DNA of 64,000 bases, from positions 8,246,001 through 8,310,000 of the forward strand of contig OZ024763.1 in assembly GCA_964016885.1 (NCBI GenBank), given 5' to 3'. Origin of the DNA: Eledone cirrhosa. Taxonomy: Eukaryota. The notes under the pieces are model-generated. The model was not told where the DNA came from and did not search any database. It was given only the letters and a program-made list of their open reading frames with translations. The position numbers and the translations under genes are program-made. Below are positions 18,851-55,921 of this stretch, one piece after another (the first letter of the stretch is position 1; every line of letters starts with the position of its first letter).

Positions 18851-18985
18851 AGTACCAGTAATACATTGGGGTAATTGCTGGCCTTGTGGGAAAAGTAGAA
18901 ACAATTATTATTCGATGTAATCCATATTTACATTTATGTATTTGGTAGTTTAATATTTTCTATGTTGTTGTTGTTGTTGTTTCAG

Positions 18986-19780
18986 TACCTGCCATCTACC
19001 GGCCATCTTTGAGACCTGACGAAGAACTGCCTCCCCCTCCTATGATGTCTAGTATGAACCCTCGTTACCCTGACGACAACTTCCCCCCACCCCCTCCTCT
19101 CCTACCGCCCCTGCCTCCCACCGCGTCCGAGCTCTCCCACGTTCCTTTCTACGGTAACCGTAACGACGGCTACAACCTGCCTCCACCGCCCCCACCGGTC
19201 GAGCACGACTACGCCACCGCCGCCGTGTCGCACGCCACCGCCACACCCACCGTCTACGCCCCGCCCCCTCCCCCGCCCGCCAGCTACCAGGTCCACCCTG
19301 GCTACAGCGTTGGCGGCAGCAGCTACAACTCTCGGTCAGTTCCGGTGACGGCTCCGTCTTCGACCGGGTCCTCCACCCCGTCACACTACCCCCCACGCCG
19401 TGACTTGAACCAGTCGAACTACATGAACCACACTGACCTGCCACCCCCTCCACCGCCGGCCCCCACCCAGACCATCGTGCCAAACTACTCCAATGTCCAC
19501 ACTACCACCAGTAGTGGCGGCAGCGGTGTTGTTGGACTCAGTTCTTCACAACCCCTCAACTACAAAACAGCCGGTCAAGGCAGCCCACAGCAACATAAAT
19601 ACCCGGGTTACTCAGATGCGGTCAGCTCTGCTCCGGCCACTGCCAGTCCACCGGGCAGCTACACTACAAACTCACTGCCTCGGTCAGATGGCCGGAAAGT
19701 TGGTAAAGAAGCTGAAGTAGACGCCTTGACCAGTTTACTAATGCAAAATATTGAATCTGCTGGTGACCCAGACTTCTTTG
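18986..19780 (+). CDS. LPP: LPP/zyxin-family exon 2: proline-rich region with FPPPP/LPPPP motifs and pre-LIM helix
   Basis: DDNFPPPPP, EAEVDALTSLLMQNIESAGDPDFFG; TTTCAG acceptor and GTAAGT donor, phase 1. Confidence 0.92.
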
Positions 19781-20947: not shown

Positions 20948-21049
20948 GAATGTGTTCCAAATGTGGCCACCGTGTCGTAGGTCAGAGTAACGGATGCACA
21001 GCCATGGATCAAGTATTCCACATTGACTGTTTTGTCTGTGACAGTTGTG
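20948..21049 (+). CDS. LPP: LPP exon 3: N-terminal part of LIM1
   Basis: GMCSKCGHRVVGQSNGCTAMDQVFHIDCFVCDSCG; AG/GT, phase 1-1. Confidence 0.95.
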
Positions 21050-26941: not shown

Positions 26942-29669
26942 TATCATCATCATCATTTGTCTATTCATCTTCTCTGTTAGTAAGGGCTGGACAGGTTTTT
27001 GTCATCGACACGACACATTGAATACTTTAATGTGGCTACAGCCCTCTCAGGCAGGCTGGAGGGGCTAGGCTGCATTTGTGTTGAGTGGGGGGCAATGTGA
27101 AATGGAAGTGTTTGTTGTGGGGTCAAGTCCTGTTTCAGGGTTTGAACTCACAACATTATGATACTAAACTAAACACCCTAATCATTAGGCCATGAGCCTT
27201 TACCCTTCATTGGGTTTATGCTTGTTGTTGTTGTTGTTGAAGAAGTGGTCATTTCCATCTTTTGCCCAGCCACAAAGAAAAAGCCCCCCGCCCCCTCCTA
27301 TAATGACGTAAAATAAAAAAACCCAAACATACCTCTCTCTTGTTGGCACAGTGAAGGAGGTGAAGTGCCTTGAACCACACACCACCCCACCCCACACCCA
27401 CCACACACCACCACCCCCATCAACCCAACCCCCCCACCATCAATACCACCACACACCACCACCAACACCACCACCACCACCACCACCACCACCACCACCA
27501 CCATCAACACCACCACCATCAACACCACCATCACCACCACCACCAACACCACCATCAACACCATCAACACCACCACCACCATCAACACCACCACCACCAT
27601 CAACACCACCACCACCACCACCACCATCAACACCACCACCACCAACACCACCAACACCACCATCAATACCACCACCACCCCCACCGGATGTTATGTTATG
27701 CGATAGTGGTTGATGTAGTTAGTTCTATTGATGTTATATATGTGTAGGAAACACACTCACACACACACATACATATACACATACACACACATAAGCATAA
27801 TGAGTATATACACACATACACTCTCACACATACATGACACATACACATAACCATAATAAATATGAGACTGACATATATACACTCACATACACACATACAT
27901 GCACGTCACACACACGCGCGCGCGCAGATATATACATCAGAGACTCTTACACATACACGACACACACATACACCTTACACACACTCACACACGTTACACT
28001 TACACACATATACATCACACACAGTTTCAGAGAGAAGCTAGTGTTAGTGAGAATAAGACTGACAGAGGGAGATGACTGCTATGTGACACTTATTGAGTAC
28101 TACAGCTACAACAACAACAACCACAACAAACACAGCCACAACTACAACCACAACATCAACAACAACAGTCACGACAACCACAGCTACAACTGTGACAACA
28201 ACCAACAGCACCACAACATCCGACACAACCACAGCTACTAGCGACAACAACAACTACCACCACAACAACTACAGCCACCACAACAACCAACATAACCACA
28301 ACAGTGACAACAACAACATCAACAGTAACAACAACCACAACAAGTAGCAACACAGAAGATGACAGTAAGTTACAAAATTACTCGTCACACAGTCTACTAC
28401 ACTTGATGCTAGCTTTTTCTCTATTGTATTAACTAATATTATCTAGTTTGGCAGATTCTAGGGTCCCTTTTTGTGGTGAAAGATTGACTGGGTTATATCT
28501 AGTTTGGCAGATTCTGGGGTCCCTTTTTGTGGTGAAAGATTGACTGGGTTATATCTAGTTTGGCAGATTAATAAGTATTTTGGTAGATACTGAGATCACA
28601 CTTTGAGATGACACCGGGTAGCAGATAGTTTTGTTGGTAGATTGAAGCGGGGTCCTTTTTATGATGAGCTGACATGGGATAACATGTAGTTTGTTTGGTA
28701 GATTCCGGGTCTTTCTGTGTGTGTATAACACTGGTAACATCGAGTTTTATAAATCCTGAGGGTCATTCCTGGGTTTTATTCCGAGGGGTGACATTAGTGA
28801 TAAGTACTTCAATGGTCAGGTCTCAGGGAGAGGTTTTTCTATGAATTTTTGTCACTGGTAACATATATTCTGGTAGCCAGGTCTCAGTAAGATATATTTT
28901 GGTAGTTTCTGGGATCTGTTCTGTGTGGTGGGGTCGATACTGGATAACAGTTAGTCGCGTTGTTAGATCCTCGGGCTTTTCTGGGTAACAATTATTTTAG
29001 TAGGACATTTTTTTATGAAGGCTTCACTAGTGACAGGGACTTGTGGTCAACTCCGACCGTTCCCGTTTTGCACTGCCCCACCTTATCTCATCTCCCATAC
29101 CGGATGTAACTGAATACTGATATAGTTTCATTCTTTCTGTCTGTCTGTCTCCTGATCTGACCGTGTGTCCAGCCCCTGGGTCAGTCACGTTGGACAGTCA
29201 ATGGCATGGAGATTTTTCTATAGCCGTGGCCGTGGTCCAACAGATCAGTTTAAAGTGTGTGTTGGATGTGGGAGGGGAAGAAACACCCTCTCCTCCTTTC
29301 CCTCCCCCTCTCGTTCAGTTGTGGGTCCACACAGGATTGACATTGGAGACTGGGGATGTGTGATAGTGAGTGAGTCACGCGGAAATTGAAGTCCTGTACT
29401 ACTACCACTACTACTACTACTACCACCACTACCACTACCACCACCACCACCACCACCACCACTACTACTACTACTACCACTACTACCACTACCACCACCA
29501 CTACTACTGGATTTCTGGATTTTATCATTACCAACCACACTAACAACAACAGTAACAACAACACATTCACCACAGTAACAACAACAACCACACTAACAAC
29601 AATAACAATAGTAACAACAAGAACAAGAAGTGTTTTAATGATCCAAGCCTCAAACAAAACCATTCCAAG

Positions 29670-32600
29670 ATGGCACTAAACTGTGCCATGATGAATATCA
29701 TAAATATGGAATCTCTGGCAGACTGGAAGTATCGTTATATTTTCTGCTACCAGGACTTCATTAGCAAGATGCTAGTTCTTCACGCTGTTGAGTCGAAGAA
29801 GCCACAACACATCGCAACAATCCTCCATGATGTTCTGCATCTCGTTGACTTCCCCAGTGTCATCAGAAGCGAGAGTGGTCACGTGTTTGTGACACGAGTT
29901 CTCCAAGAGATGAGAATCTGGTGGCCGACCTGTAGCTCGGGGCTAAATTCTTCCATGCAACAGGACGACAGGTTGAATTACCCACAAAACAAACAAGAAG
30001 ACGAAGACAAAGAAGAAGAGAAAGAAAAAGAGGATAGAAGCGATGGTAACGATAATGACAATATGATAGACAATGTGTATGTCTTGGAAAGTCTGAAGCG
30101 TTGGATGATACAACACAACAGCAGCAACTGGAGTCTGGGGGTAAAGCTTGTTCAATTCCAAGAGAATTCTATCAACCAAACAGCAGACATAGACTTTGTG
30201 TCATCCAATAAACTTCTCACAGAACTCGCTGGCATTTACATGCCATTTGAGTGCCTGAAAAGTTTAAAAAGCAGTGACGAGTTAAACCAGATTTTGTGCA
30301 GGACTCTCACTACAGGCATTGAGGATTTACAATCACAGCTAGGAGTTTCTCCTAAAAGGAGTACTGCATGTTGCAAGCTGGTGACCGCTGCCGCGAAACC
30401 CCATGGAAAGCTTACAAATCGTTGTGTGGCTGATAAGAAATTCCAGTTTGAAAGAAATGCGACACATTCTGATTTATTGACTTCTGTCTACCATGGTAGA
30501 AAACCTCATCATGTTGTGACTGATGAGTCTTCAGCTGAAGAAACTTTGCCAAAGTCCAGACTCAGTGGGTCTGTATCTAAAGACAGAGTTTTATCACTTG
30601 AGACCCTCGGAGATTCATCTAATTCAGATTCCCAGGTAACAGGAACTACTAAATCTCAATCGGACATTTCTACAGGAAATGACGTACCTGGAAAACCGAG
30701 CACGGAAATTCTAGATCCTTCTTCTGGTGGCTCTGACACTCACCTTCATCTTCATCATCATCATCAATATCCTCCCCATCCCCCTCATCTTCCTCACCCC
30801 CAGCAACAGCAGCAGTTCGGACGCTTGTCGGAAGTCCTTAACGACACTGGAGGAAGCCATTACCGATATGACTCGGCTAAATGCGTGCGTGACATCATCC
30901 AGTTCATGGAACTACAGCCCTACCGTCACAGTAACAACCTCATACCTTTGATTGTCGAGAAAAAGTCTAAAGATCAACCCTCAGGTGATACGGAAAATAA
31001 TTCTTCCTACGACAGAAACTGTGAACCTTGTGTAACAGCAGGTGAACCTATATCTGAAATACGGACTAAGATAACCACCACACTTACTGCAGAAACTTGT
31101 AACAAGCCACACCGTGCTGCTGACCAGGGCAACAGGAGTTTCACCCCGGATTATACTCACATCTCCCTGAGTGATACAGCCTCTCATTCCACCAACTTGG
31201 ACACTGGTCAGTCTTCACTTGATATCAAAGTCGATAACGAAACACCTGCTGATGCTCTGTTTGATGTACCTGGCACAGATATACAGACAGTGCTGCATGT
31301 GCAGGAAACACCAGCACCTGCTTACGTGTCAAACGAAGGTGAAATTACTTGCAGAAAGGACTTTACCGAAGATGCTCTCAGCTGCGTAGAAAGTGTATCA
31401 AAACATGCAGAAGATACATTAAACTACAGAGGGGGTTTTTCAACTGACACACCTGTTAATGAACTTACTTGTGAGTCAGGGAACTTTGAGGAACCTTATT
31501 TTGTTTACAGGACCAACAGAAGGACTGGGAACAACTTCATTTCCTTAATTCGGAGCTCAAGTTTAACTGAAATCAACAGTCCGATGTTGTGCACCTCTGT
31601 ACCCTCCTGCAAGATTGTTGCACCTTACTGTACAGCTGAAATACAGAGTCCTGGTGATCCGGCCACTGTTGAACCTGAAACGGAATATCCCACATCGAGT
31701 GGGATGTTGGACACCTGTTCTGTGAAGAGTCCAGTGTCAAGGCCACAACTTCCCAGAATACTGGACAGCAACAGCTATTCCTCTGCAAGATGTCCAGCAT
31801 CAAGGCCACAACTTCCCGCAATTTTGGACATTAACCATTCTGAGAGATGTCCAGCATCAAGGCCACAACTTGACACAATTTTGGACACTAACCATTCTGA
31901 AACAAGTCCAGTATCAAAGCCACAACTTGACACAATTTTGGACACTAACCATTCTGAAAGGAGTCCAGCATCAAAGCCACAAACTCCAGGAAAATTCCAG
32001 GATTCGAAGTGCTTGCTTAAAGTCCAGGATATTATAAGGAAGTTGGAAATATCCAGCTCCAGTTGCTCAGAATGTGAGGACTTTACAAAGAACAGGAAAA
32101 TCCCGGAGAGGGCCGCCAATATCGGGAATATCATAAAAAGATTGGAATCATTTGCAGGACCTCATCCGAAATGGAGAACTTTGAGAATAATTGGCCAGAG
32201 CTGTGAGGACTTGAATAAGCTTGACCAGGACTGTAATGCAGGTGATGTGGGGTCAGTTGGAGGGTCAGAAGAGTTGGAAAATACTTTGTCAGTGGACGAA
32301 GACGAAGATAAAGACTGCGAGGAAGAAGAGCCTCAGTATGTCTTACCTGTGAGTCAGCAGCTGGACACTGACCTTGTCTTGAACCTTGATGACCAGTCAC
32401 TGACCTCACCTGACCATGGATCTTTAACACGGGACAATTCCTACCAATTAACTCTGACCACAGACATTAACGATGATGGTGATGGTGATACTTATAGATA
32501 TGATGGTGATGGTTGGGATAAATATGATGGGGATGGGGATTGTGGTCAATATAAAGTAAAAAATGATGATGATGATAATGATTGTAATGTCGATGTTATT

Positions 32601-33804
32601 AATATTAATGAGAGTTCCGATAATGTAGATGATGATGATGATGATGAGGGAAAAGAAAACCATCCCAAAATGCGTCACTTTTCCAGTAGTTCAACCTTGA
32701 AACTTTCTGAGTTGGAGGATGAACTCAGCTCTTTCCCAAGTATCCCAGGATACGAGGACAACAACAACTATGATAATGATGAGACGAGGGTGGACGATGA
32801 TGATGATGATGATGCTTTTACTTATACCGAAGACTTGGACCATCGTATAAACAACGTGATATTCCGCTTGAAGTCAGAATCCGAAATCTCCGATTGCTTG
32901 GATGATGAAGATTCTGATGACTTTTCTGAAGATGGTGGGTCCAAGAACTCAACTTGTGGCAATGATGGTGACACTTCGGTCTCGCTGGATAAAACAGGTT
33001 TCTATGGAAATGAGCCGGGTGACGAAGACGACCAAGAGGACCCTGTAACCCCTACCAACATCAACACACCCTTGTATTTTGCGAACAAGCTCCGTACTTC
33101 TCCTGCCTGTTACAACCTCAACTCCTACATCTCAACGAGTTATTTGTGCAATGGCAGCAGAGATGGTACTCATATCAAACGTAACATCTGTGAAAGTGTT
33201 GAAGAAGTTTCAAACAACCTAGAGCCGTCCCTCAACGAAGTTTCATCAAGTTTATCTTCCGCCCTCAACGTAAAACACAGCTCCTTAAAACGTGTCGGCA
33301 GCAATGTGGGTTCGAGTTCCATCTCTAGCGGACGGGAGTGTTCAGCGAGGCCACAGTCCAGCACATTTTCCAGTGTCTTCAGCATCGCCCAAGCCACCCG
33401 AGCGACCCAAGCTCCTACGTGGTACGTCCCTTCTTACGAAAACCCGAAACAGACGACAAAAGCAGACGAAGGCCAGCTTAGCGAAATGTCTTTTCTGACG
33501 GACATCGAACAGAAAATAAAACAGGCTTTGCAGGAACTTGAGGCTGTGGATCTTTGCCATTACCAGTCCTTCGATAACCTCTGCCCGAGGCCAGTATTAT
33601 ACAGTGGAGGCAATGTCAGGGAAAAATCAGAATTTATTTCAATTTCTCAGTGTAAACAATGCGAATGTGATGATGCATCATACTGTCGCAGTTGCAACTG
33701 TGTTCTGCAGGATCAGTGTTACATCTTTTGTCCTCTCTGCCAATTCTTAAACAAACGGATCGTCGGAACTCAGGAACAATTCCATTATCAGGTTTATGAG
33801 AAAA
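29670..33804 (+). CDS. Large nested coding exon: degenerate KRBA2/SCAND3-like integrase domain, long acidic/disordered region and Cys-rich end; probable alternative first coding exon of the LPP locus
   Basis: 4.1-kb stop-free, non-microsatellite ORF (open to 33941); good start context CCAAGATGG; in-frame stop upstream at 29553; donor A|GTAAGG at 33804/33805 followed by low-complexity TTTCA repeats. Confidence 0.75.
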
Positions 33805-34269
33805 GTAAGGAATATCTTTCATCTCCTTTTGTTTTTCATTTCACCTCATTTCATTGCATTTTCCTCTCATTTCATCTAATTTCATCTCATCTCATTTCAC
33901 CTCATTTTCATCTCATTTCATCTCGCCTCATTTTCATCTAATTTCATTTCACCTCATTTTCATCTCATTTTCACCTCATTTTCATTTCATCTCATTTCAT
34001 CTAATTTCATTTCATCTCATTTTCATCTAATTTCATTGCATTTTTTCTTTCTTCTTCTTCATGTAGTTGTTCTCACTTTCCTTGTTCAAATTATTGTTTC
34101 TAATAATAATTGTTTCTACCTTTGGCACAAGGCCAGCAATCACCCAGTACATTACTGGTACTTTATTTTATCATAATAATGATTTCATTTATTGGCCACA
34201 AGGGCCGACATGTAGGGGACAATACAAAGACAGGGACAGTGGGGGAGTTTACATATACAACAATAGACA

Positions 34270-35100
34270 CCACTACCACCACCACCACCACCACCAACAA
34301 CAACACCACTACCACCACCACCACTACTACTACCACCACCAACAACAACACCACTACCACCACCACCACTACTACTACCACCACCAACAACAACACCACT
34401 ACCACCACCACCACTACTACTACCACCACCAACAACACCACTACCACCACCACTACTACTACCACCACCACCAACAACAACACCACTACCACCACCAACA
34501 ACAACAACACCACCACCACAACCACCACCACTACCACCACCACCACCACCCATCACCACCACTACCACCACCACTACCACCCATCACCACAACTACCACC
34601 ACCACCACCAACAACAACACCACCACCACCACTACTACTACCACCACCACAACTACCACCACCACCAACAACAACAACACCAACACCACCACCACCACCA
34701 CCACAACTACCACCACCACCAACAACAACACCACCACCACCACCACTACTACTACCACCACCACCAACAACAACACCACTACCACTACCACAACTACCAC
34801 CACCACCAACAACAACAACAACACCAACACCACCACCACCACTACCACCACCACCACCACCACCACTACCACCACCACCACCACCACCACCCATCACCAC
34901 CACTACCACCACCACCACTACTACCACCCATCACCACCACCACTACCACCACCACCACCACCACCACTACCACCACCACCACCACCACCACCCATCACCA
35001 CCACTACCACCACCACCACTACTACCACCCATCACCACCACCACCACCACCACCACCACCACTACCACCATCACCACCACCACCCACCACCAACACCATC
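34270..35100. repeat. (CAC/CAA/TAC)n trinucleotide block
   Basis: Directly visible. Confidence 0.9.
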
Positions 35101-35719
35101 TTTGTCATTGTACATCACAAGTGAGTTTATATTAAATAAACAATTATGAATTTATATTTCCCACAGACACAAAAACAGGCATACTGACACACTGACACAC
35201 GCACACACACACGCACACACACACACACGCACACACACACACACACACACGCACACGCGCACACACACGCACACGCACACGCACACGCACACGCACGCAC
35301 ACACACACACAGCCAAATACACAGGCACACAGCCAAATACACAGGCACACATAGACAGACACAGGCACACATAGACAGACACACACACACAGAGACACAC
35401 AAATTTGACAATGGTTATGCTATATTAGAAAGATAAAAGGATATGGTGCTAGCATCAAAGACATGTCAACCCTCCCTAGTGTTGGTGCCACACACAGTCG
35501 GGAGGACCCTTCAGTTGGGTCAACACCAAACCCCTAACACCCACTATGTCATGACAGCAGCAGGGGCCCCTTACAACAAGCTCTATCAGTAGTTCAAGGT
35601 CCCAGGAAATGATGCTATACTACATATAACTAATTAACTCTATAATAATGAGGTTATGTATCTGATGAGTTAATTAGTTACTAATACACTGCACTCAACA
35701 TACAGCGGATGTCTAAAAC

Positions 35720-37680
35720 ACACCGACACCACCAACACCACCAACACCACCAACACCACCAACACCAACACCACCAACACTAACACAAACACCAACAACA
35801 CCAACACCACCAACACCAACACCAACAACACCAACACCACCAACACTAACACCACCACCAACACCAACACCAACACCACCAACACCACCAACACCAACAC
35901 CAACACCACCAACACCAACACCACCAACACCACCACCAACACCACCAACACCACCACTACCACCACCAACACCAACAACACCACCAACACCACCAACAAC
36001 ACCACCAACACCACCAACACCACCAACACCAACACCACCACCAACACCACCACCAGCACCACCAACACCACCAACACCAACACCACCACCAACACCACCA
36101 ACACCACCACCAACACCACCAACACCACCACCAACACCACCACCACCAACACCACCACCACCAACACCACCAACACCACCAACACCAACACCACCAACAC
36201 CAACACCACCAACACCACCACTACCAACACCACCACTACCACCACCAACACCACCAACACCACCAACACCACCAACACCAACATCACCAACACCAACACC
36301 ACCACCAACACCAACAACACAAACAACACCAACACCACCACCAACACCAACACCACCACCAACACCAACACCACCACCAACACCACCACCAACACCAACA
36401 CCACCACCAACACCACCACCACCAACACCACCACCACCACCACCACCAACACCACCAACACCAACACCACCAACACCACCAACACCAACACCACCAACAC
36501 CAACACCACCAACACCACCAACACCACCAACACCACCAACACCAACACCACCAACACCACCAACACCACCAACACCACCAACACCACCAACACCACCAAC
36601 ACCACCAACACCAACAACACCACCAACACCACCAACACCAACACCACCAACACCACCACCACCACCAACACCAACACCACCAACACCACCAACACCACCA
36701 ACACCACCAACATCAACACCATCAACACCAACACCACCACCACCAACACCACCAACACCAACACCGCCAACACCAACACCACCAACAACAACACCAACAC
36801 CATCAACACCAACACCACCAACACCACCAACACCAACACCACCACCAACACCACCACCAACACCAACACCACCAACACCAACACCACCAACACCAACACC
36901 ACCAACACCAACACCACCAACACCAACACCACCAACACCACCAACACCAACACCACCAACACCACCAACACCACCAACACCACCAACACCAACACCACCA
37001 ACACCAACACCACCAACACCACCGACACCAACACCACCAACACCAACACCACCACCACCACCAACACCACCAACACCACCAACTCCACCAACACCACCAA
37101 CTTCACCAACACCACCAACACCACCACCACCACCACCAACACCACCACCACCACCACCAACACCACCAACACCACCACCACCACCACCAACACCACCAAC
37201 ACCAACACCAACACCACCAACACCACCAACACCAACACCAACACCACCAACACCAACACCACCAACACCAACACCACCAACACCAACACCCCAACACCAC
37301 CACCAACACCACCACCACCAACACCACCACCACCACCAACACCACCAACACCACCAACACCACCACCAACACCAACAACACCAACACCAACAACACCAAC
37401 ACCACCAACAACACCACCAACACCAACACCACCAATACCACCAACACCACCAACACCAACACCACCAACACCACCAACACCACCAACACCACCAACACCA
37501 CCAACACCACCAACACCACCAACACCACCAACACCACCAACACCACCATCGCCACCACCACCACCATCACCACCACCACCACCACCAGCACCACCACCAC
37601 CATCAACACCATCACCACCAACACTACCACCACCACCACCACCAGCACCACCACCACCATCAACACCACCACCACCACCT
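35720..37680. repeat. ~2-kb (ACC/AAC)n trinucleotide array
   Basis: Directly visible. Confidence 0.95.
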
Positions 37681-38971
37681 CTATCTGAAGTAGATCATTT
37701 CTCATTATTGTTATCATTTATTATTATTATTATTGGCGGTGTATTGTCAGTATTGGTAGAGGGTCGGACGCCACGCTTTGACGTAGAGTTACGGCCCTTT
37801 CCATTCTGAGTTCAAATCCCGCCTAGGTGAACTTTGCCTTTCATCCTTACGGGGGTCGATAAACATAAAGTACCAGTAATACACTGGGGTCCAATTTAAT
37901 CGACTTTTCCCTTCCTCCCAAATTATTGGCCTTGTGCCTAAATCAAAACTATTATTGTTTTAAAGTACCAGTAATGTACTGGACAATTGTGGCTTTGTGC
38001 CAAAAGTAGAAACAATTATTGTTTAAATCCAGCCCTGGATGGTGGTAGGGGGTGATTCTGGTTATACTGTGGTGTAGGTGGTAGTACTGTGGTAGTAGTG
38101 TTTCATTGGTAGTAGTAGTAGTAGTAGTAGTGGTGGTTATGATGATCAACCATTTGCAAACATTAAGGCCTGCAGATTACCAAGCAGATGTAGAGATATA
38201 TTATCTCCAATAATATCGCCTCCACCCATTATGAAACCAACTGGTAGCCGTATGTAATGTTGTGTATTATTGTTATTGTGTAACTATACATGGTGATGTT
38301 GATAGTGGTGTTGATAATGATGATGGTGATAATGTTGATGATGGTGATGATGTTGATAATCTTCATGTTGTTGTTGATGATGATAATGGTGGTGTTGTGG
38401 GTGGAGATGATGATGACGACGATGATGGTGGTGGTAATGATATTGATGATGATGATGGTGTTGGTGGTAGTGTCAATGATGATGATGATGATGATGTTGG
38501 TGGTGATAGTGATAGTGATGATGATAATGATAATCTTTGTGGATGGTTGTGGTGGTGGTGATGGTATTAGGTTTGTGTAGTGTACATAAGTATATGTATG
38601 CGTGTGTGAGTATGTGTGTGTGTGTGTTCTAATTTGTGTGGGAGCATGGGGCATGTTTGTACTGTCTCTCACTTCCGTGTATATATGTGTGTATATGTGT
38701 ATATATGTGTATATGTGTGTGTATATGTGTATATATGTGTATATGTGTATATATGTGTGTGATAAAAATCTGTTGGTGAGAACACAAGTACCCACTGTTG
38801 AACAGAATATATGTATGTAATGTCTATGTGTGTGTATATGCATGTGTGTATATACACTTTCTTTTGTGTGGTGAATGTATGAATTATTATATAAATGCTT
38901 ATGAATAGTATATATACATACATGCGTACATATGGGTATATATACATATATACATATATATATATATATAC

Positions 38972-39037
<66 letters not shown>

Positions 39038-39933
39038 TCTTTTATGTGGTGAATGTTTAAATGATTATATAAATGCTTATGTATTGTGTGTATATGTGTG
39101 CATACATACATGCGTTCATATATGTGTGTGTGTGTGTGTGTGTGTTAAAAGTTAATACTCAGTGGAACCTCATTAAAACTGAAGTATCTCTGTATTTTAA
39201 TGAAAATCTCCAACAGACCACCACTGAACTGGCCACCAAATGTTGGTCTCTCTCTCTCTATTGTGGGGGCATATTGTCGTCAAGCTGAAGCATATAGACA
39301 ATATGCCCCCACACCCTCCACTGTAAAGTGGACGTGTAGGCATCACGGAAAAAAGCACCCAGCACTCACTGTAAATGAGGTTGGTGTTAGGAAGGGCATC
39401 CAGCTGTAGAAATCAAGCCAAAATCAGTTCCTGTATGAGCAAGGCCTGGTCACCCGACCAGACACTGCCCACAACAGGACAACCCGTCTAACCCATGCTA
39501 GCATGGAAGAACGGACGTAAAACGGTGATGATGATGATATATTCACTTATATATACACTTACTTATATATACTCTTACTTATCTACACACTTGACACATA
39601 CATACTCACTGACTAATATATATATATATATATAAATGTATGTATATATATATAAATGTATATGCATATATATATATTTGCATATATATGTATGTATATA
39701 TATATATATATATATAAATGTATATATCTATATCTATATGTGATTCTTTTTCTACTATTTCAAGCGTAAAACTAATAATATATTTCTTCATTTTACTGTG
39801 TTGTTTGCTTTGTAATTTCTGTTTGCCTTTTGCATATATATATATATATATATATAACGAAGGAAATGTGGTAAGGAACCAGGTGGACCATAACGCACCA
39901 AAGTACTCAATACTTGAGGTAGTAGAGTGGGTA

Positions 39934-40409
39934 ATAGGAACCAGTAAGACCCCGACAGCTGAGCTCAAGCCGTTTCGACGGCTAATTCTGGACTAAATGA
40001 AAATTTATCCTGGTATTTAAATAGCCGATCTTCTCAAGGGGTAATTCCATATATGGTCAAAGTGATTGTCAAAAATCAGTAGTAATTCTGTGGTTGCAAA
40101 TTAGCAGGGGAGATGGTGGCTAAACCTGCCAGTAGGAGAAAGAGGGGAGGGGGTGGAGTAGACCCAATCAAGCGTTGGTAGTGCCAGCTACAGCTGGGCA
40201 TGAGGTCAAAGAAGATACAGGCAGGTTTATCTCCCCTGCTAATTTGCAACCACAGAATTACTACTGATTTTTGACAATCACTTTGACCATATATGGAATT
40301 ACCCCTTGAGAAGATCGGCTATTTAAATACCAGGATAGATTTTCATTTAGTCCAGAATTAGCCGTCGAAACGGCTTGAGCTCAGCTGTCGGGGTCTTACT
40401 GGTTCCTAT
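39934..40409. repeat. Inverted repeat with ~180-bp arms and ~114-bp spacer, containing a degenerate hammerhead
   Basis: Arms 39934-40114 and 40229-40409; ACCCC-ttGAGAAGA-TCGGCTA..TAGCCGTC-GAAA-CGGCT..AGCTG-TC-GGGGT at 40301-40394. Confidence 0.9.
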
Positions 40410-40568
40410 ATATATATAAAATATATGGAACTCCTTTAACCATCTTTTGATCTTATATTATGCATACTCCAGTCCCACAAACTGTAGAGTGCTTCTTATC
40501 CGATATCTGCATTGCTTTATTGTACTACAATAAAACTCACCTCCTACATATATATATATATATATATA

Positions 40569-40603
40569 TTTCTGATGAAGGACTAGCGTCCGAAACGTTA
40601 AGA
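40569..40603 (+). ncRNA. Minimal hammerhead motif
   Basis: CTGATGA-A-GGAC(TAGC)GTCC-GAAA-CGT-TA with palindromic AACGTT; decayed sister copy at ~45432-45465. Confidence 0.6.
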
Positions 40604-40824
40604 CCCTCTTCCTGCTATTTCAAGCGTTAACCTAATATATTCCTTCCATATACTGTACTGATTGTGTTGTTTCTGTTTACCTTTTACATATCTCTCTCTC
40701 TCTCTCTCTCTCTCTCCACTCTGCATCTCCACATGTATTGAATACTCCCACGATTAGTGTTCTCTCTGGTCTCAGCACCGCAGACTCTCTCTGTATATAA
40801 ACTGATAGAGGTCAGAGAGAGAGC

Positions 40825-41395
40825 ACAGACTACATCACACCACACACCACACCACACTACACTACACCACACATCACATCACACCACACCACACCACACT
40901 ACACTACACTACACTACACCACACACCACATCACACCACACCACACCACACCACACTACACTACACACCACACCACACTACACTACACTACACCACACAC
41001 CACATCACACCACACCACACCACACCACACTACACCACACCACACCACACCACACTACACTACACACCACACCACTACACTACACTACACTACACCACAC
41101 ACCACACCACACCACACCACACCACACCACACCACACCACACTACACTACACACCACACCACACCACACTACACACCACACTACACTACACTACACTACA
41201 CCACACACCACACACCACACCACACCACACCACACCACACCACACCACACTACACTACACTACACTACACTACACTACACTACACTACACACCACACCAC
41301 ACTACACTACACTACACTACACACCACACCACACTACACTACACTACACTACACACCACACTACACTACACTACACACCACACCACACCACACCA
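40825..41395. repeat. (CACAC/CTACA)n pentanucleotide array
   Basis: Directly visible. Confidence 0.9.
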
Positions 41396-41446
41396 GGCAC
41401 AATACCAGTAATTATCCACTAACTCTCTCTCTCTCTCCATTTCCAG

Positions 41447-41514
41447 GGACCATCCTCCGTGGTAAATCATTCTATGCTATTGAGACCAAACCATATTGTG
41501 AATCTTGTTATGTT
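41447..41514 (+). CDS. LPP: LPP exon 4: C-terminal part of LIM1
   Basis: (G)TILRGKSFYAIETKPYCESCYV; TTCCAG acceptor, phase-1 start, GTAAGT donor. Confidence 0.93.
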
Positions 41515-41888: not shown

Positions 41889-41936
41889 AACACTCTTGAA
41901 AAATGTTCAGTTTGTTCGAAACCTGTTATTGACCGA
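41889..41936 (+). CDS. LPP: LPP exon 5: start of LIM2
   Basis: NTLEKCSVCSKPVIDR; AG/GT. Confidence 0.93.
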
Positions 41937-42562: not shown

Positions 42563-42693
42563 TTGTTGAGAGCGACAGGTAAACCATACCACCCTTCCTG
42601 TTTTACCTGTGTGGTATGTGGTAAAAGTCTTGATGGAGTACCTTTCACAGTTGACGCCACTAACCAGATCCACTGCATTGACGACTTTCACAA
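42563..42693 (+). CDS. LPP: LPP exon 6: LIM2
   Basis: [44 protein letters not shown]. Confidence 0.96.
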
Positions 42694-42752: not shown

Positions 42753-45317
42753 AGAACACTCAGTCTATAGGACAAGTTTAGTATAATTAGTTACAACAGT
42801 GACATCTACAGGTAGAACACTCAGTCTATAGGACAAGTTTAGTATAATTAGTAACAACAGTGACATCTACAGGTAGAACACTCAGTCTATAGGACAAGTT
42901 TAGTATAATTAGTTACAACAGTGACATCTACAGGTAGAACACTCAGTCTATAGGACAAGTTTAGTATAATTAGTTACAACAGTGACATCTACAGGTAGAA
43001 CGCTCAGTCTATAGGACAAGTTTAGTATAATTAGTTACAACAGTGACATCTACAGGTAGAACACTCAGTCTATAGGACAAGTTTAGTATAATTAGTTACA
43101 ACTGTGACATCTACAGGTAGAACACTCAGTCTATAGGACAAGTTTAGTATAATTAGTTACAACAGTGACATCTACAGGTAGAACGCTCAGTCTATAGGAC
43201 AAGTTTAGTATAATTAGTTACAACAGTGACATCTACAGGTAGAACACTCAGTCTATAGGACAAGTTTAGTATAATTAGTTACAACAGTGACATCTACAGG
43301 TAGAACGCTCAGTCTATAGGACAAGTTTAGTATAATTAGTTACAACAGTGACATCTACAGGTAGAACACTCAGTCTATAGGACAAGTTTAGTATAATTAG
43401 TTACAACAGTGACATCTACAGGTAGAACGCTCAGTCTATAGGACAAGTTTAGTATAATTAGTTACAACAGTGACATCTACAGGTAGAACGCTCAGTCTAT
43501 AGGACAAGTTTAGTATAATTAGTTACAACAGTGACATCTACAGGTAGAACACTCAGTCTATAGGACAAGTTTAGTATAATTAGTTACAACAGTGACATCT
43601 ACAGGTAGAACGCTCAGTCTATACGACAAGTTTAGTATAATTAGTTACAACAGTGACATCTACAGGTAGAACACTCAGTCTATAGGACAAGTTTAGTATA
43701 ATTAGTTACAACAGTGACATCTACAGGTAGAACACTCAGTCTATAGGACAAGTTTAGTATAATTAGTTACAACAGTGACATCTACAGGTAGAACACTCAG
43801 TCTATAGGACAAGTTTAGTATAATTAGTAACAACAGTGACATCTACAGGTAGAACACTCAGTCTATAGGACAAGTTTAGTATAATTAGTTACAACAGTGA
43901 CATCTACAGGTAGAACGCTCAGTCTATAGGACAAGTTTAGTATAATTAGTTACAACAGTGACATCTACAGGTAGAACACTCAGTCTATAGGACAAGTTTA
44001 GTATAATTAGTTACAACTGTGACATCTACAGGTAGAACACTCAGTCTATAGGACAAGTTTAGTATAATTAGTTACAACAGTGACATCTACAGGTAGAACG
44101 CTCAGTCTATAGGACAAGTTTAGTATAATTAGTTACAACAGTGACATCTACAGGTAGAACACTCAGTCTATAGGACAAGTTTAGTATAATTAGTTACAAC
44201 AGTGACATCTACAGGTAGAACGCTCAGTCTATAGGACAAGTTTAGTATAATTAGTTACAACAGTGACATCTACAGGTAGAACACTCAGTCTATAGGACAA
44301 GTTTAGTATAATTAGTTACAACAGTGACATCTACAGGTAGAACGCTCAGTCTATAGGACAAGTTTAGTATAATTAGTTACAACAGTGACATCTACAGGTA
44401 GAACGCTCAGTCTATAGGACAAGTTTAGTATAATTAGTTACAACAGTGACATCTACAGGTAGAACACTCAGTCTATAGGACAAGTTTAGTATAATTAGTT
44501 ACAACAGTGACATCTACAGGTAGAACGCTCAGTCTATACGACAAGTTTAGTATAATTAGTTATAACAGTGACATCTACAGGTAGAACACTCAGTCTATAG
44601 GACAAGTTTAGTATAATTAGTTACAACAGTGACATCTACAGGTAGAACACTCAGTCTATAGGACAAGTTTAGTATAATTAGTTACAACAGTGACATCTAC
44701 AGGTAGAACACTCAGTCTATAGGACAAGTTTAGTATAATTAGTTACAACAGTGACATCTACAGGTAGAACACTCAGTCTATAGGACAAGTTTAGTATAAT
44801 TAGTTACAACAGTGACATCTACAGGTAGAACACTCAGTCTATAGGACAAGTTTAGTATAATTAGTTACAACAGTGACATCTACAGGTAGAACACTCAGTC
44901 TATAGGACAAGTTTAGTATAATTAGTTACAACAGTGACATCTACAGGTAGAACACTCAGTCTATAGGACAAGTTTAGTATAATTAGTAACAACAGTGACA
45001 TCTACAGGTAGAACACTCAGTCTATAGGACAAGTTTAGTATAATTAGTTACAACAGTGACATCTACAGGTAGAACACTCAGTCTATAGGACAAGTTTAGT
45101 ATAATTAGTTACAACAGTGACATCTACAGGTAGAACACTCAGTCTATAGGACAAGTTTAGTATAATTAGTTACAACAGTGACATCTACAGGTAGAACACT
45201 CAGTCTATAGGACAAGTTTAGTATAATTAGTTACAACAGTGACATCTACAGGTAGAACACTCAGTCTATAGGACAAGTTTAGTATAATTAGTAACAACAG
45301 TGACATCTACAGGTAGA
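42753..45317. repeat. 61-bp tandem satellite (~42 near-identical copies)
   Basis: Unit AGAACACTCAGTCTATAGGACAAGTTTAGTATAATTAGTTACAACAGTGACATCTACAGGT. Confidence 0.97.
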
Positions 45318-46114: not shown

Positions 46115-46235
46115 AAAATTTGCCCCTCGCTGTTGTGTGTGTCAACTTCCCATTATGCCCGACCCTGGTAAGGAGGAGACAGTACGCGTGGTAGCTATGG
46201 ACAGGAGCTTCCATGTGCACTGCTACTGTTGCGAG
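46115..46235 (+). CDS. LPP: LPP exon 7: first part of LIM3
   Basis: [40 protein letters not shown]. Confidence 0.96.
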
Positions 46236-47279: not shown

Positions 47280-47411
47280 GATTGCGGTATGCCATTATCA
47301 TCTGAGGCCGAGGGTCGAGGCTGTTACCCTCTTGATGAACACGTACTCTGCAAAATCTGCAATGCCAAGCGCATTCAGGCACTCACCACCAAAATGACCA
47401 CCGAACTGTGA
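47280..47411 (+). CDS. LPP: LPP exon 8: end of LIM3 and PDZ-binding-type C-terminus
   Basis: DCGMPLSSEAEGRGCYPLDEHVLCKICNAKRIQALTTKMTTEL-stop. Confidence 0.96.
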   Translation, partial: DCGMPLSSEAEGRGCYPLDEHVLCKICNAKRIQALTTKMTTEL

Positions 47412-53610: not shown

Positions 53611-53874
53611 AGTTGCACATCTTGGCAGAAATGTCACATCTTTTCTGGTGACAGGAGCCAGTTTGAATTCAAAATGTACAGAGCAAGAAGTGACAGACTG
53701 CAAAGAATTCTGGTACTTTAATTATCAACCTTGAAGTGCCAGTAACGCACTGGGATCAATTTGATCGACTTTACCCTCTTCCCTTTAAATTGCTGGCCTT
53801 GTGCCAAATGTAGAAACCATCATTTATTTTGTCTCTGATCTAATAAACAAAAGTAAACACAACATACTTCCTAC

Positions 53875-54096
53875 CTCGATTATTTGCTCCTGTGATGTTA
53901 ACGCGTTTACAATCTTAATTTTGCAAGTCTTTTCTGAAAGGTATCCTACTTCATACGCTTCATTATCCTTCCACCAGGGACAGCCAAAGTCATTAGCCCA
54001 GCTGGAGTCTGGGTACGGTGGTGGTATGTGAAGAAAGCGGCCGTTTGGACAATATGGAATAAGGCACTGCGTCTCGGGATCAACATATTTGCGGAC
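53875..54096 (-). CDS. CYB5D1: CYB5D1 exon 3
   Basis: [42 protein letters not shown]...[11 protein letters not shown]. Confidence 0.95.
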
Positions 54097-54252
54097 CTGA
54101 AATGGGTTACATAGAGAAGGGTCAGGTGCATGTATTTCATTAGAAATATAGTAATGAAAGTTGTGTACAGTGCTCAGGTGCACTACAACTCATCAAAGCT
54201 GCATGTGTTTTTAGAGAAATATGGTAATGAAAATGTTAAAGAGTTGACTCAC

Positions 54253-54329
54253 ATCGCAAGTATATTTGTCAAACCAATGAGAGATGTCTGTCCCACCAGC
54301 ATCAATGATGGGTTTCAAGAGAATATTTC
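54253..54329 (-). CDS. CYB5D1: CYB5D1 exon 2
   Basis: (G)NILLKPIIDAGGTDISHWFDKYTCD; AG/GT. Confidence 0.93.
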
Positions 54330-54894
54330 CTATGGAGAGAGACACAGATAATGTTAAGAAATGATTCCACAGAGAATAATAGTTTCATTTATTGGCCACA
54401 AGGGCCGACATATAGGGGACAATACAAAAGACAGGGACAGTGGGGGTTTACATATACAACGTGTAAACATACACACACACATGTACACCAGGTCTGATCA
54501 CAAAGGAGCCAAACTCTCACTGTCATCGCCTCCATCACCCCCTGCTCTCCCATCTCACATGTACACCAGATCTGATCACAAAGGAGCCAAACTCTCACTG
54601 TCAGTGGTGGACTGGGTCTAAAAATATTGGGTGCCAGGAGATGAAGGGGTCCACATACATATAGAATGCTATCATTTAATTTTTATAATGAATAAATAAT
54701 ATTTTCGAAAAATACGTAAGTGGAAACAAAACAGTGCAATCATATTTTTGCAGAAAAATATCTTACCTTCTCCAATAAAAAAAAATGTTTTTTTCGAAAT
54801 CCAGAGACTTTCAATAATGACCAGAAGTCGACCCTAAATATTACTAATAGCTCTAGGAAAGCCATGAACGACAACACATCTTTTTAACTTTGAT

Positions 54895-55205
54895 TTTGAA
54901 AATAAGTTTATAGTTATCAATATTCATTATACTTTCGTAGCTGTCTCGGTGGCCTAGTTGGAAGAGTCATAGGCGGTGGTGATCCTGGTCTGAAGTTCAA
55001 TCTTGGTTGGGAATAGGGTTCCCTTTTCAGTTTTTTTCTATTGGTTGTAAAATAAAAACTGAAAAGGTTACATGCACCTCTTGACCAGGATTGAACCCAA
55101 GACCAGGATCTCCACCGTCTCTAGTACCTACCACTAGGCCACAGAAACAACTACAAAAATCTTATGAAAATTCATACTTATAAACCTACTTTTATTTATT
55201 TTAAA
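54895..55205. mobile_element. Fold-back element made of two inward-facing tRNA-like units
   Basis: GTGGCCTAGTTGG...GATCCTGGTC..GTTCAATCTTGG on +, with its mirror CCAGGATTGAAC..GACCAGGATC..CCACTAGGCCAC. Confidence 0.6.
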
Positions 55206-55587
55206 ACAAATTTTATTCTTTCTTTTAGATTTCAGGTATTTTTTGAAAGCAAAGGATTGGCCCCTAAAATAATACAGCATATGTATGTATATATGTGTAT
55301 GTATATATATGTATATGTGTGTGTATGTATGTGTGTGCGCGTGTGTATATGTATTTGTGCGCGCGTGTGTGTAACAGGAGAAACGACGTTAAACGACGAT
55401 GAACACAACTATAATGATGATGATGATGATGGCGGTGACGGTGACGATGATGACGGTGACGGTGACGATGATGACGGTGACGGTGACGATGATGACGGTG
55501 ACGGTGATGATGATGACGGTGACGGTGACGATGATGACGGTGACGGTGACGATGAAACACAAACAAAATAAAAATAAACCTTGTAAC

Positions 55588-55708
55588 CTTTTTGCGCGGA
55601 ACAGAGTTTGGTCAAATCGTAAACTTTGCCCATAAAAGTGACCCAGAGGTCATCTGGCATGTTATGATGTGAGATCTCTTTAGGAGTGAAATATCTTACA
55701 ACATCCAT
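55588..55708 (-). CDS. CYB5D1: CYB5D1 exon 1
   Basis: [40 protein letters not shown](G); phase-1 GT donor at 55587. Confidence 0.9.
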
Positions 55709-55921
55709 TGTGGCCCAGGACTGGAATAGTTTCAAGACGACACAAGTAGATATTTCAGGAAGAAAATAAAGAAAATGTATAATAATTCAGTTAAGAATAA
55801 GAATATAATACAGTTGATCTCTTAAAATAAAATAAGATAAAATAATACTTTTTGGGGTAATTTCCGATGATTTTTAGTTAATTTTCAGCTAAAATTGTGA
55901 AAAATAACGAAACTCCATTTC

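Follow-up and report, generated by a model that had tools for sequence, protein, structure and literature searches.

What a transposase-derived reading frame is doing inside a zyxin-family gene is the question raised by the 64,000-nucleotide stretch of Eledone cirrhosa DNA analysed here (the window). The preliminary description had located a KRBA2/SCAND3-like integrase with an altered DDE triad at 29679-30296 (+), and the peptides on which it relied are found there; that stretch makes up no more than the opening sixth of an open frame of 1,461 codons (29556-33941, +). The main point is absent from that description: the frame lies inside a zyxin-family gene and, by our prediction, is spliced in phase to the LIM exons of that gene. 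The first well-placed ATG (29670) has a good initiation context, and residues of the core are numbered from it. A further ATG upstream, in another frame, starts a run of 13 codons (29638-29679, +) whose overlap with the main ATG could lower translation. The features are collected in Table 1; the window is rich in simple repeats.

Table 1. Features of the zyxin-family gene and of the transposase-derived exon, by position in the window
Feature	Position	Strand	Basis
Host proline-rich exon (start approximate, taken as the open-frame start)	18949..19780	+	four [FLYW]PPPP motifs; retrocopy match
Host exon, first part of LIM1, phase-1 donor	20948..21049	+	retrocopy
Transposase-derived coding exon (predicted), 1,378 codons plus one base, ATG to phase-1 donor	29670..33804	+	open frame; end-to-end alignment with Octopus sinensis XP_029651497.1
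Ginger2-type integrase core with altered catalytic columns (residues 7-228)	29688..30353	+	family profile, fold, O. sinensis identity
N9, first catalytic Asp column	29694..29696	+	profile alignment; N in O. sinensis
E68, second catalytic Asp column	29871..29873	+	profile alignment; E in O. sinensis
Acidic insert, residues 87-131, in place of strand 5 and the catalytic loop	29928..30062	+	profile alignment, model
M132, Glu column	30063..30065	+	profile alignment
Conserved helical motif 1, [VI]xx[LI]xxx[LM]E	30885..30911	+	kept in O. sinensis and P0007
57-bp in-frame tandem repeat, ~4.4 copies	31725..31982	+	linker; no O. sinensis counterpart
Conserved island with motifs 2 (32022-32048) and 3 (32121-32147)	31995..32219	+	O. 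sinensis alignment; single copy
Cys-rich exon end, possible remnant of the transposase C-terminal zinc finger	33651..33740	+	spacing by eye; not significant
Predicted splice donor GTAAGG, phase 1	33805..33810	+	position homologous to the junction in O. sinensis models P0003/P0004
Shared exon, last part of LIM1	41447..41514	+	retrocopy
Shared exon, LIM2 start	41889..41936	+	retrocopy
Shared exon, LIM2	42563..42693	+	retrocopy
Shared exon, LIM3 start	46115..46235	+	retrocopy
Last coding exon, LIM3 and stop	47280..47411	+	retrocopy

A phmmer search of 1.84 billion representative proteins with the window protein found 317 relatives with E ≤ 1e-3, of which 27 reach E ≤ 1e-10. The relatives of the core include P0079 (1,325 residues; E = 5e-8), with a SCAN + rve + Znf_SCAND3 + hAT-dimer architecture. 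The family name Ginger2/SCAND3-type is taken from this Pfam architecture together with PMC3575427, the available text of which traces the SCAND3 architecture (SCAN, rve, Znf_SCAND3 and hAT) to Ginger2 transposons; the naming has no verified TIR-bearing element behind it. A profile of the family was built from 143 of the 150 matches listed (P0009 onward, shorter than 700 residues, with P0032 removed and octopus sequences absent). The window protein scores 101.7 bits on this profile over positions 192-383, a value that is partly circular because the query itself selected the profile members; P0079 scores 462. The similarity extends to about residue 228, past 30296. Pfam rve (PF00665), which the preliminary description had recommended as a check, did not match the stretch even at E ≤ 10, and 14 of the 21 relatives scanned gave weak rve matches, all below the 32.6-bit cut-off. 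A PDB sequence search with the stretch alone gave nothing relevant. The best matches in the protein atlas (0.95) were rve clusters, with rve in 15% and 49% of their members. These sequence comparisons confirm the stretch as a Ginger2 (SCAND3/KRBA2-type) transposase core, as first proposed.

A quick tree of 80 rows (the first 70 of the 108 complete family rows, P0079, 3 cephalopod-type and 6 gypsy-type sequences) groups the core with the Ginger2-type family, apart from the gypsy integrases. The window sequence, O. sinensis and P0007 form a clade (SH-aLRT 100) on a long stem (2.0 changes per column), within the family and not beside SCAND3. The label 'GIN' that had been attached to the stretch is misplaced. 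According to the available text of PMC2836005, GIN1/GIN2 derive from Ginger1; the window core, which has no intron, scores -1.7 bits on a gypsy-type integrase profile built from the same genome against 101.7 on the Ginger2-type profile, a judgement made via that gypsy-type profile.

The catalytic columns are altered in the window. In the column of the first catalytic Asp (filled in 123 rows of the profile alignment, 106 of them with D) the residue is N9, and in that of the second (142 rows, 110 with D) it is E68, exactly the two substitutions that had been reported; O. sinensis has N and E at these columns. The conserved Asp three residues past the first catalytic Asp is also Asn in the window. 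An acidic insertion had been said to replace the segment carrying the catalytic Glu; the insert does replace the strand and loop just before the Glu, but the Glu column itself (E in 97 of 124 rows) aligns to M132 and, in O. sinensis, to a gap next to Met/Ile. The register of M132 is uncertain by one residue, with Glu absent on both sides. In the structural model the insert (~87-131) has no strand and a pLDDT of about 50; its O. sinensis counterpart is shorter and also acidic. The H2C2 finger is a defining feature of Ginger2 transposases in the available text of PMC2836005. A six-frame profile search of the window (E < 0.03), in which matches begin only at profile position 168, gave no match to this finger (profile positions before 186). 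The alignments show a core that lacks the catalytic triad, the catalytic loop and the H2C2 finger. All three columns are filled in 108 of the 144 family rows; of these, 68 have the intact triad and 18 hold one triad residue or none, so triad decay alone is ordinary in the family.

The RNase H-like integrase fold that had been anticipated is supported by an AlphaFold model of the core (pLDDT 78), guided by an alignment of family members, in which four core strands and the flanking helices are predicted and the fifth strand is absent. The model superimposes on foamy virus integrase with Z 13.2 and an rmsd of 2.9 over 127 aligned residues; 20 chains reach Z ≥ 8, and the top 18 of them are retroviral or retrotransposon integrases. 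The best Foldseek match is at 4.8e-5, and an alignment-based profile against the PDB ranks foamy-virus integrase first (3.8e-21). Profile and model evidence are not fully independent, because the profile comes from the query's own matches and the model from the family alignment. A homodimer prediction of the core, run without an alignment, scored 0.00 and is uninformative either way.

Active Ginger2/Tdd elements (PMC2836005) have terminal inverted repeats of 50-180 bp and a 4-bp target duplication. The locus shares with them the integrase-like core; it has no DDE triad, no H2C2 finger and no flanking inverted repeats, and is single copy. In the 3.0-Gb assembly a single match was obtained for the core, and likewise for the 31995-32219 island and for the 3' end. 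No inverted repeats adjoin the exon; inverted matches in the masked host intron (E < 0.1) all lie more than 4 kb away and are dispersed-repeat-like, and a search for terminal repeats around the exon returned only microsatellites and dispersed repeats. A search of the genome for Ginger2-type sequences with an intact-triad query recovered the present locus together with two relics riddled with stops; many gypsy-type integrases also matched, at ~25% identity. The counts of Ginger2-type matches are lower bounds. The relics (G000:C2:96157642-96158226 and G000:C2:388645464-388645949; L008 and L013) are the sole other family matches among the matches listed. The same genome contains an array of gypsy-type integrases (G000:C3:346968887-347038518), with frames of ~1,061 codons repeated head to tail each 5.3 kb in ~14 units and many dispersed copies elsewhere.

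The full-length comparison is between two sequences, the window and O. sinensis, the latter a gene model in which small introns could be hidden. The exons align with 34 gap runs and zero stops. Identity in the core is 63/80 before the acidic insert and 84/97 after it (79-87%), compared with 439/844 (52%) in the linker that follows; the last 108 residues are identical at 72 of 107 positions. Of the relatives located, only P0003 is near full length. P0007, a distant relative among the shorter proteins, starts mid-core, has 52 of 90 residues in common with the window protein, with an invariant run of 19 residues among them. It also has motif 1 and retains the same derived residues. Metagenome contigs contained no orthologue of the exon. 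The host role suggested in the preliminary description is supported by the single copy, by the intact frame and by the comparison with O. sinensis, in which the core is better conserved than the linker; the core is very probably both domesticated and dead.

The host gene belongs to the zyxin/LPP/TRIP6 family (best PDB match the TRIP6 LIM, 3.9e-33). Its proline-rich exon carries [FLYW]PPPP motifs, which bind Ena/VASP. The transposase frame lies on the same strand as the host, inside a 20.4-kb intron (21050-41446) that splits LIM1. A processed copy of the host gene, the sole one found, is located at G000:C8:25330148-25331608 (L034, L035), with the exons joined in order, the introns absent and 76-94% identity; it has a stop, a frameshift and deletions and is a pseudogene. 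Because this retrocopy joins the host exons and omits the transposase frame, it confirms the ordinary isoform and the host exon bounds. A second zyxin-family LIM gene (G000:C3:118722633-118724960; L036) contains introns, and its matched pieces are 53-78% identical; no transposase-core match was found within the 10 kb examined there. A host intron also contains a 61-bp tandem array (window 42753-45317; 42 copies, 98% matches).

The junction between the transposase exon and the LIM exons is supported by computed RefSeq models: O. sinensis XP_029651497.1 and XP_036369609.1 both join the two. At the homologous position the window has a GTAAG donor, one of only five GTRAG sites in 4,272 bases, in a phase equal to that of the host's own donor. 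Simple repeat begins just past it, at 33834, and accounts for most of the 45 codons between the donor and the frame's own stop. Joining 33804 to 41447 gives a predicted stop-free protein of 1,544 residues, with a LIM tail identical to that of O. sinensis at 163 of 166 positions. In the O. sinensis gene models a transposase domain stands in frame with host domains. With this exon and LIM tail linked in the same way and the core more conserved than the linker, the O. sinensis gene is taken as a syntenic orthologue under constraint. The predicted fusion would contain half of LIM1 and the whole of LIM2 and LIM3, compared with three LIMs in the ordinary isoform, and no [FLYW]PPPP motif, compared with four in the host proline-rich exon. 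None of 21 candidates among shorter proteins spans the junction. A cassette exon, with the first part of host LIM1 joined into the whole core, was considered and rejected: seven AG dinucleotides lie between the ATG and the stop upstream of it, all out of phase. From the pyrimidine-rich AG that ends at 29318, translation would run into an in-frame stop, and this site would be usable only for a non-coding leader. Because no in-phase acceptor precedes the core, the exon reads as an alternative first coding exon. From donor, phase and gene models together, we think it probable that the exon is spliced to the LIM exons.

The linker between the core and the exon end comprises ~1,040 residues of low complexity. 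The pattern [VI]xx[LI]xxx[LM]E, which was set after the motifs had been seen, occurs three times in the linker of each species, against 0.05-0.08 expected from shuffles; in the island that holds motifs 2 and 3, residues 801-850 are identical to O. sinensis at 45 of 50 positions. The SFM F-actin-binding motif is given as VxxLxxxFE in the available text of PMC13364712 and 10.1101/2025.04.16.649135. The linker motifs resemble it in hydrophobic/Glu spacing, low-complexity setting and conservation but have Leu or Met, not Phe, at position 8. A search with the strict pattern (Val at position 1, Phe at position 8) gave no match, the three relaxed matches all having Leu/Met, and the available text of 10.1101/2025.04.16.649135 describes the Phe as essential.

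Judged from the spacing of its cysteines, the Cys-rich exon end may represent the C-terminal finger of the transposase itself, in which case the whole exon would be one stretched transposase. Against a 32-sequence profile of Znf_SCAND3-type fingers this end scores -1.3 bits, below a LIM control; its model has a pLDDT of 44, and the atlas gave no usable match. Pfam PF23663 was silent in the genome and equally silent in the controls.

The reading that we favour, with a little more confidence than doubt, is that the exon headed by the dead single-copy Ginger2 core acts as an alternative first coding exon of the zyxin-family gene, which would give a non-enzymatic scaffold isoform. A Ginger2 element would have inserted into the LIM1 intron in a cephalopod ancestor, where it would have lost its ends and its catalysis and its frame would have grown the low-complexity linker. 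An internal promoter is predicted to drive transcripts joining 33804 to 41447 alongside the ordinary three-LIM isoform. The fusion isoform would swap the proline-rich N-terminus of the host for the dead core and linker, and we propose that the core is used as a folded protein-contact module. The three helical motifs of the linker and LIM2-3 could hold the isoform on the actin cytoskeleton, where it would act as a tether or in competition with ordinary zyxin. This cytoskeletal role is a tentative suggestion, which we would expect to fail somewhat more often than hold. Within it, a tether or competitor is favoured over a strain sensor because two tandem LIMs bind strain sites weakly, and parallel clustering of LIMs does not rescue the binding (available text of 10.1101/2020.03.06.980649). 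We consider unlikely the most far-reaching version, a lineage-specific cephalopod protein in which a Ginger2 transposase split by a 1,000-residue linker with newly evolved actin-binding helices is spliced mid-LIM1, so that one gene alternates between a strain-sensing zyxin and a tension-independent actin tether.

Because the frame reaches its own stop 45 codons beyond the donor, a stand-alone product could be made, and the exon could then be a nested gene that has its own promoter and ends within the intron, the join to the LIM exons being a rare or mis-modelled splice. The frame's own ATG and stop, the absence of the transposase exon from the retrocopy and the lack of any junction-spanning protein besides the two RefSeq models are consistent with such a gene. 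We nevertheless regard it as a clear minority possibility, given a scarce GTAAG site in the right phase at the O. sinensis-homologous junction and the mostly repetitive codons past it. Far less probable is that the frame is a pseudogene or a decaying remnant of a transposon without any function for the host. The changes in all three catalytic columns, a linker identical at barely half of its positions between the species and the decay of many relatives speak for it; against it, 1,378 stop-free codons stay open in both species across all the gap runs, conservation is concentrated in the core and the islands, and P0007 keeps the derived residues.

It is also conceivable, but quite unlikely, that the fusion is made and has a nuclear function, either regulatory or as a decoy poisoning related transposases. 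Zyxin-family proteins shuttle to the nucleus. A defensive or regulatory function has been proposed, without test, for SCAND3/KRBA2 (available text of PMC3575427), and vertebrate host-transposase fusions are mostly transcription-factor-like in the available text of 10.1101/2020.05.07.082677. Against a nuclear role, the H2C2 finger is unmatched in every frame of the window, and, besides this locus, the two stop-ridden relics alone are Ginger2-like among the genome matches listed.

The alternative first exon that we favour over these readings can be compared with known captures. SCAND3 and KRBA2 are mammalian proteins derived from the same transposase family, single copy, with the integrase on one exon joined to host exons (available text of PMC3575427). 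The window gene would be a separate capture and not an orthologue: it is not sister to them in the quick tree and has no SCAN or KRAB domain, its transposase part is N-terminal, its host partner is LIM rather than SCAN or KRAB, and its core has lost triad, catalytic loop and H2C2, whereas P0079 retains D/D/E. The KRABINER, SETMAR and CSB-PGBD3 fusions are alike in the intronic transposon, the capture by alternative splicing and the parental transcript that is kept, here seen in the retrocopy (available text of 10.1101/2020.05.07.082677). In the tetrapod survey reported in that text, DNA-binding domains make up 76.5% of the captured domains, and eight of nine traced splice sites are acceptors upstream of the transposase. 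The present exon differs from those fusions in its downstream donor, the lack of an in-phase acceptor, the dead catalytic core that is kept and the cytoskeletal partner. With zyxin, LPP and TRIP6 it would have the C-terminal LIM exons in common, with two whole LIMs and not three, and without [FLYW]PPPP. Our verdict is a probable host-transposase fusion of unusual build.

Transposase capture is documented chiefly in vertebrates and chiefly gives DNA-binding regulators; this case is from a cephalopod and concerns a mechanosensing cytoskeletal gene. If the junction is real, it would offer a case, open to testing, in which a transposon has remodelled the cytoskeleton by way of an alternative isoform. 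It would also be a candidate cephalopod novelty hidden by domain annotation: RefSeq labels the O. sinensis product uncharacterised, and Pfam detects only LIM in it. No description of this transposase-zyxin fusion was found in the literature covered, which excluded subscription journals and supplements; octopus transposon-derived transcription factors are treated in PMC10027918, the available text of which does not mention Ginger.

Two further observations concern the family and the window. P0006, P0008 and P0032, two of them named from tenebrionid beetles, carry three tandem decayed Ginger2-type cores, with a THAP domain in P0006, and are apparently a separate domestication of the Ginger2 family. 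On the minus strand, the window contains exon-like frames at 53824-55786 with an apparent resemblance to a cytochrome b5-domain protein.
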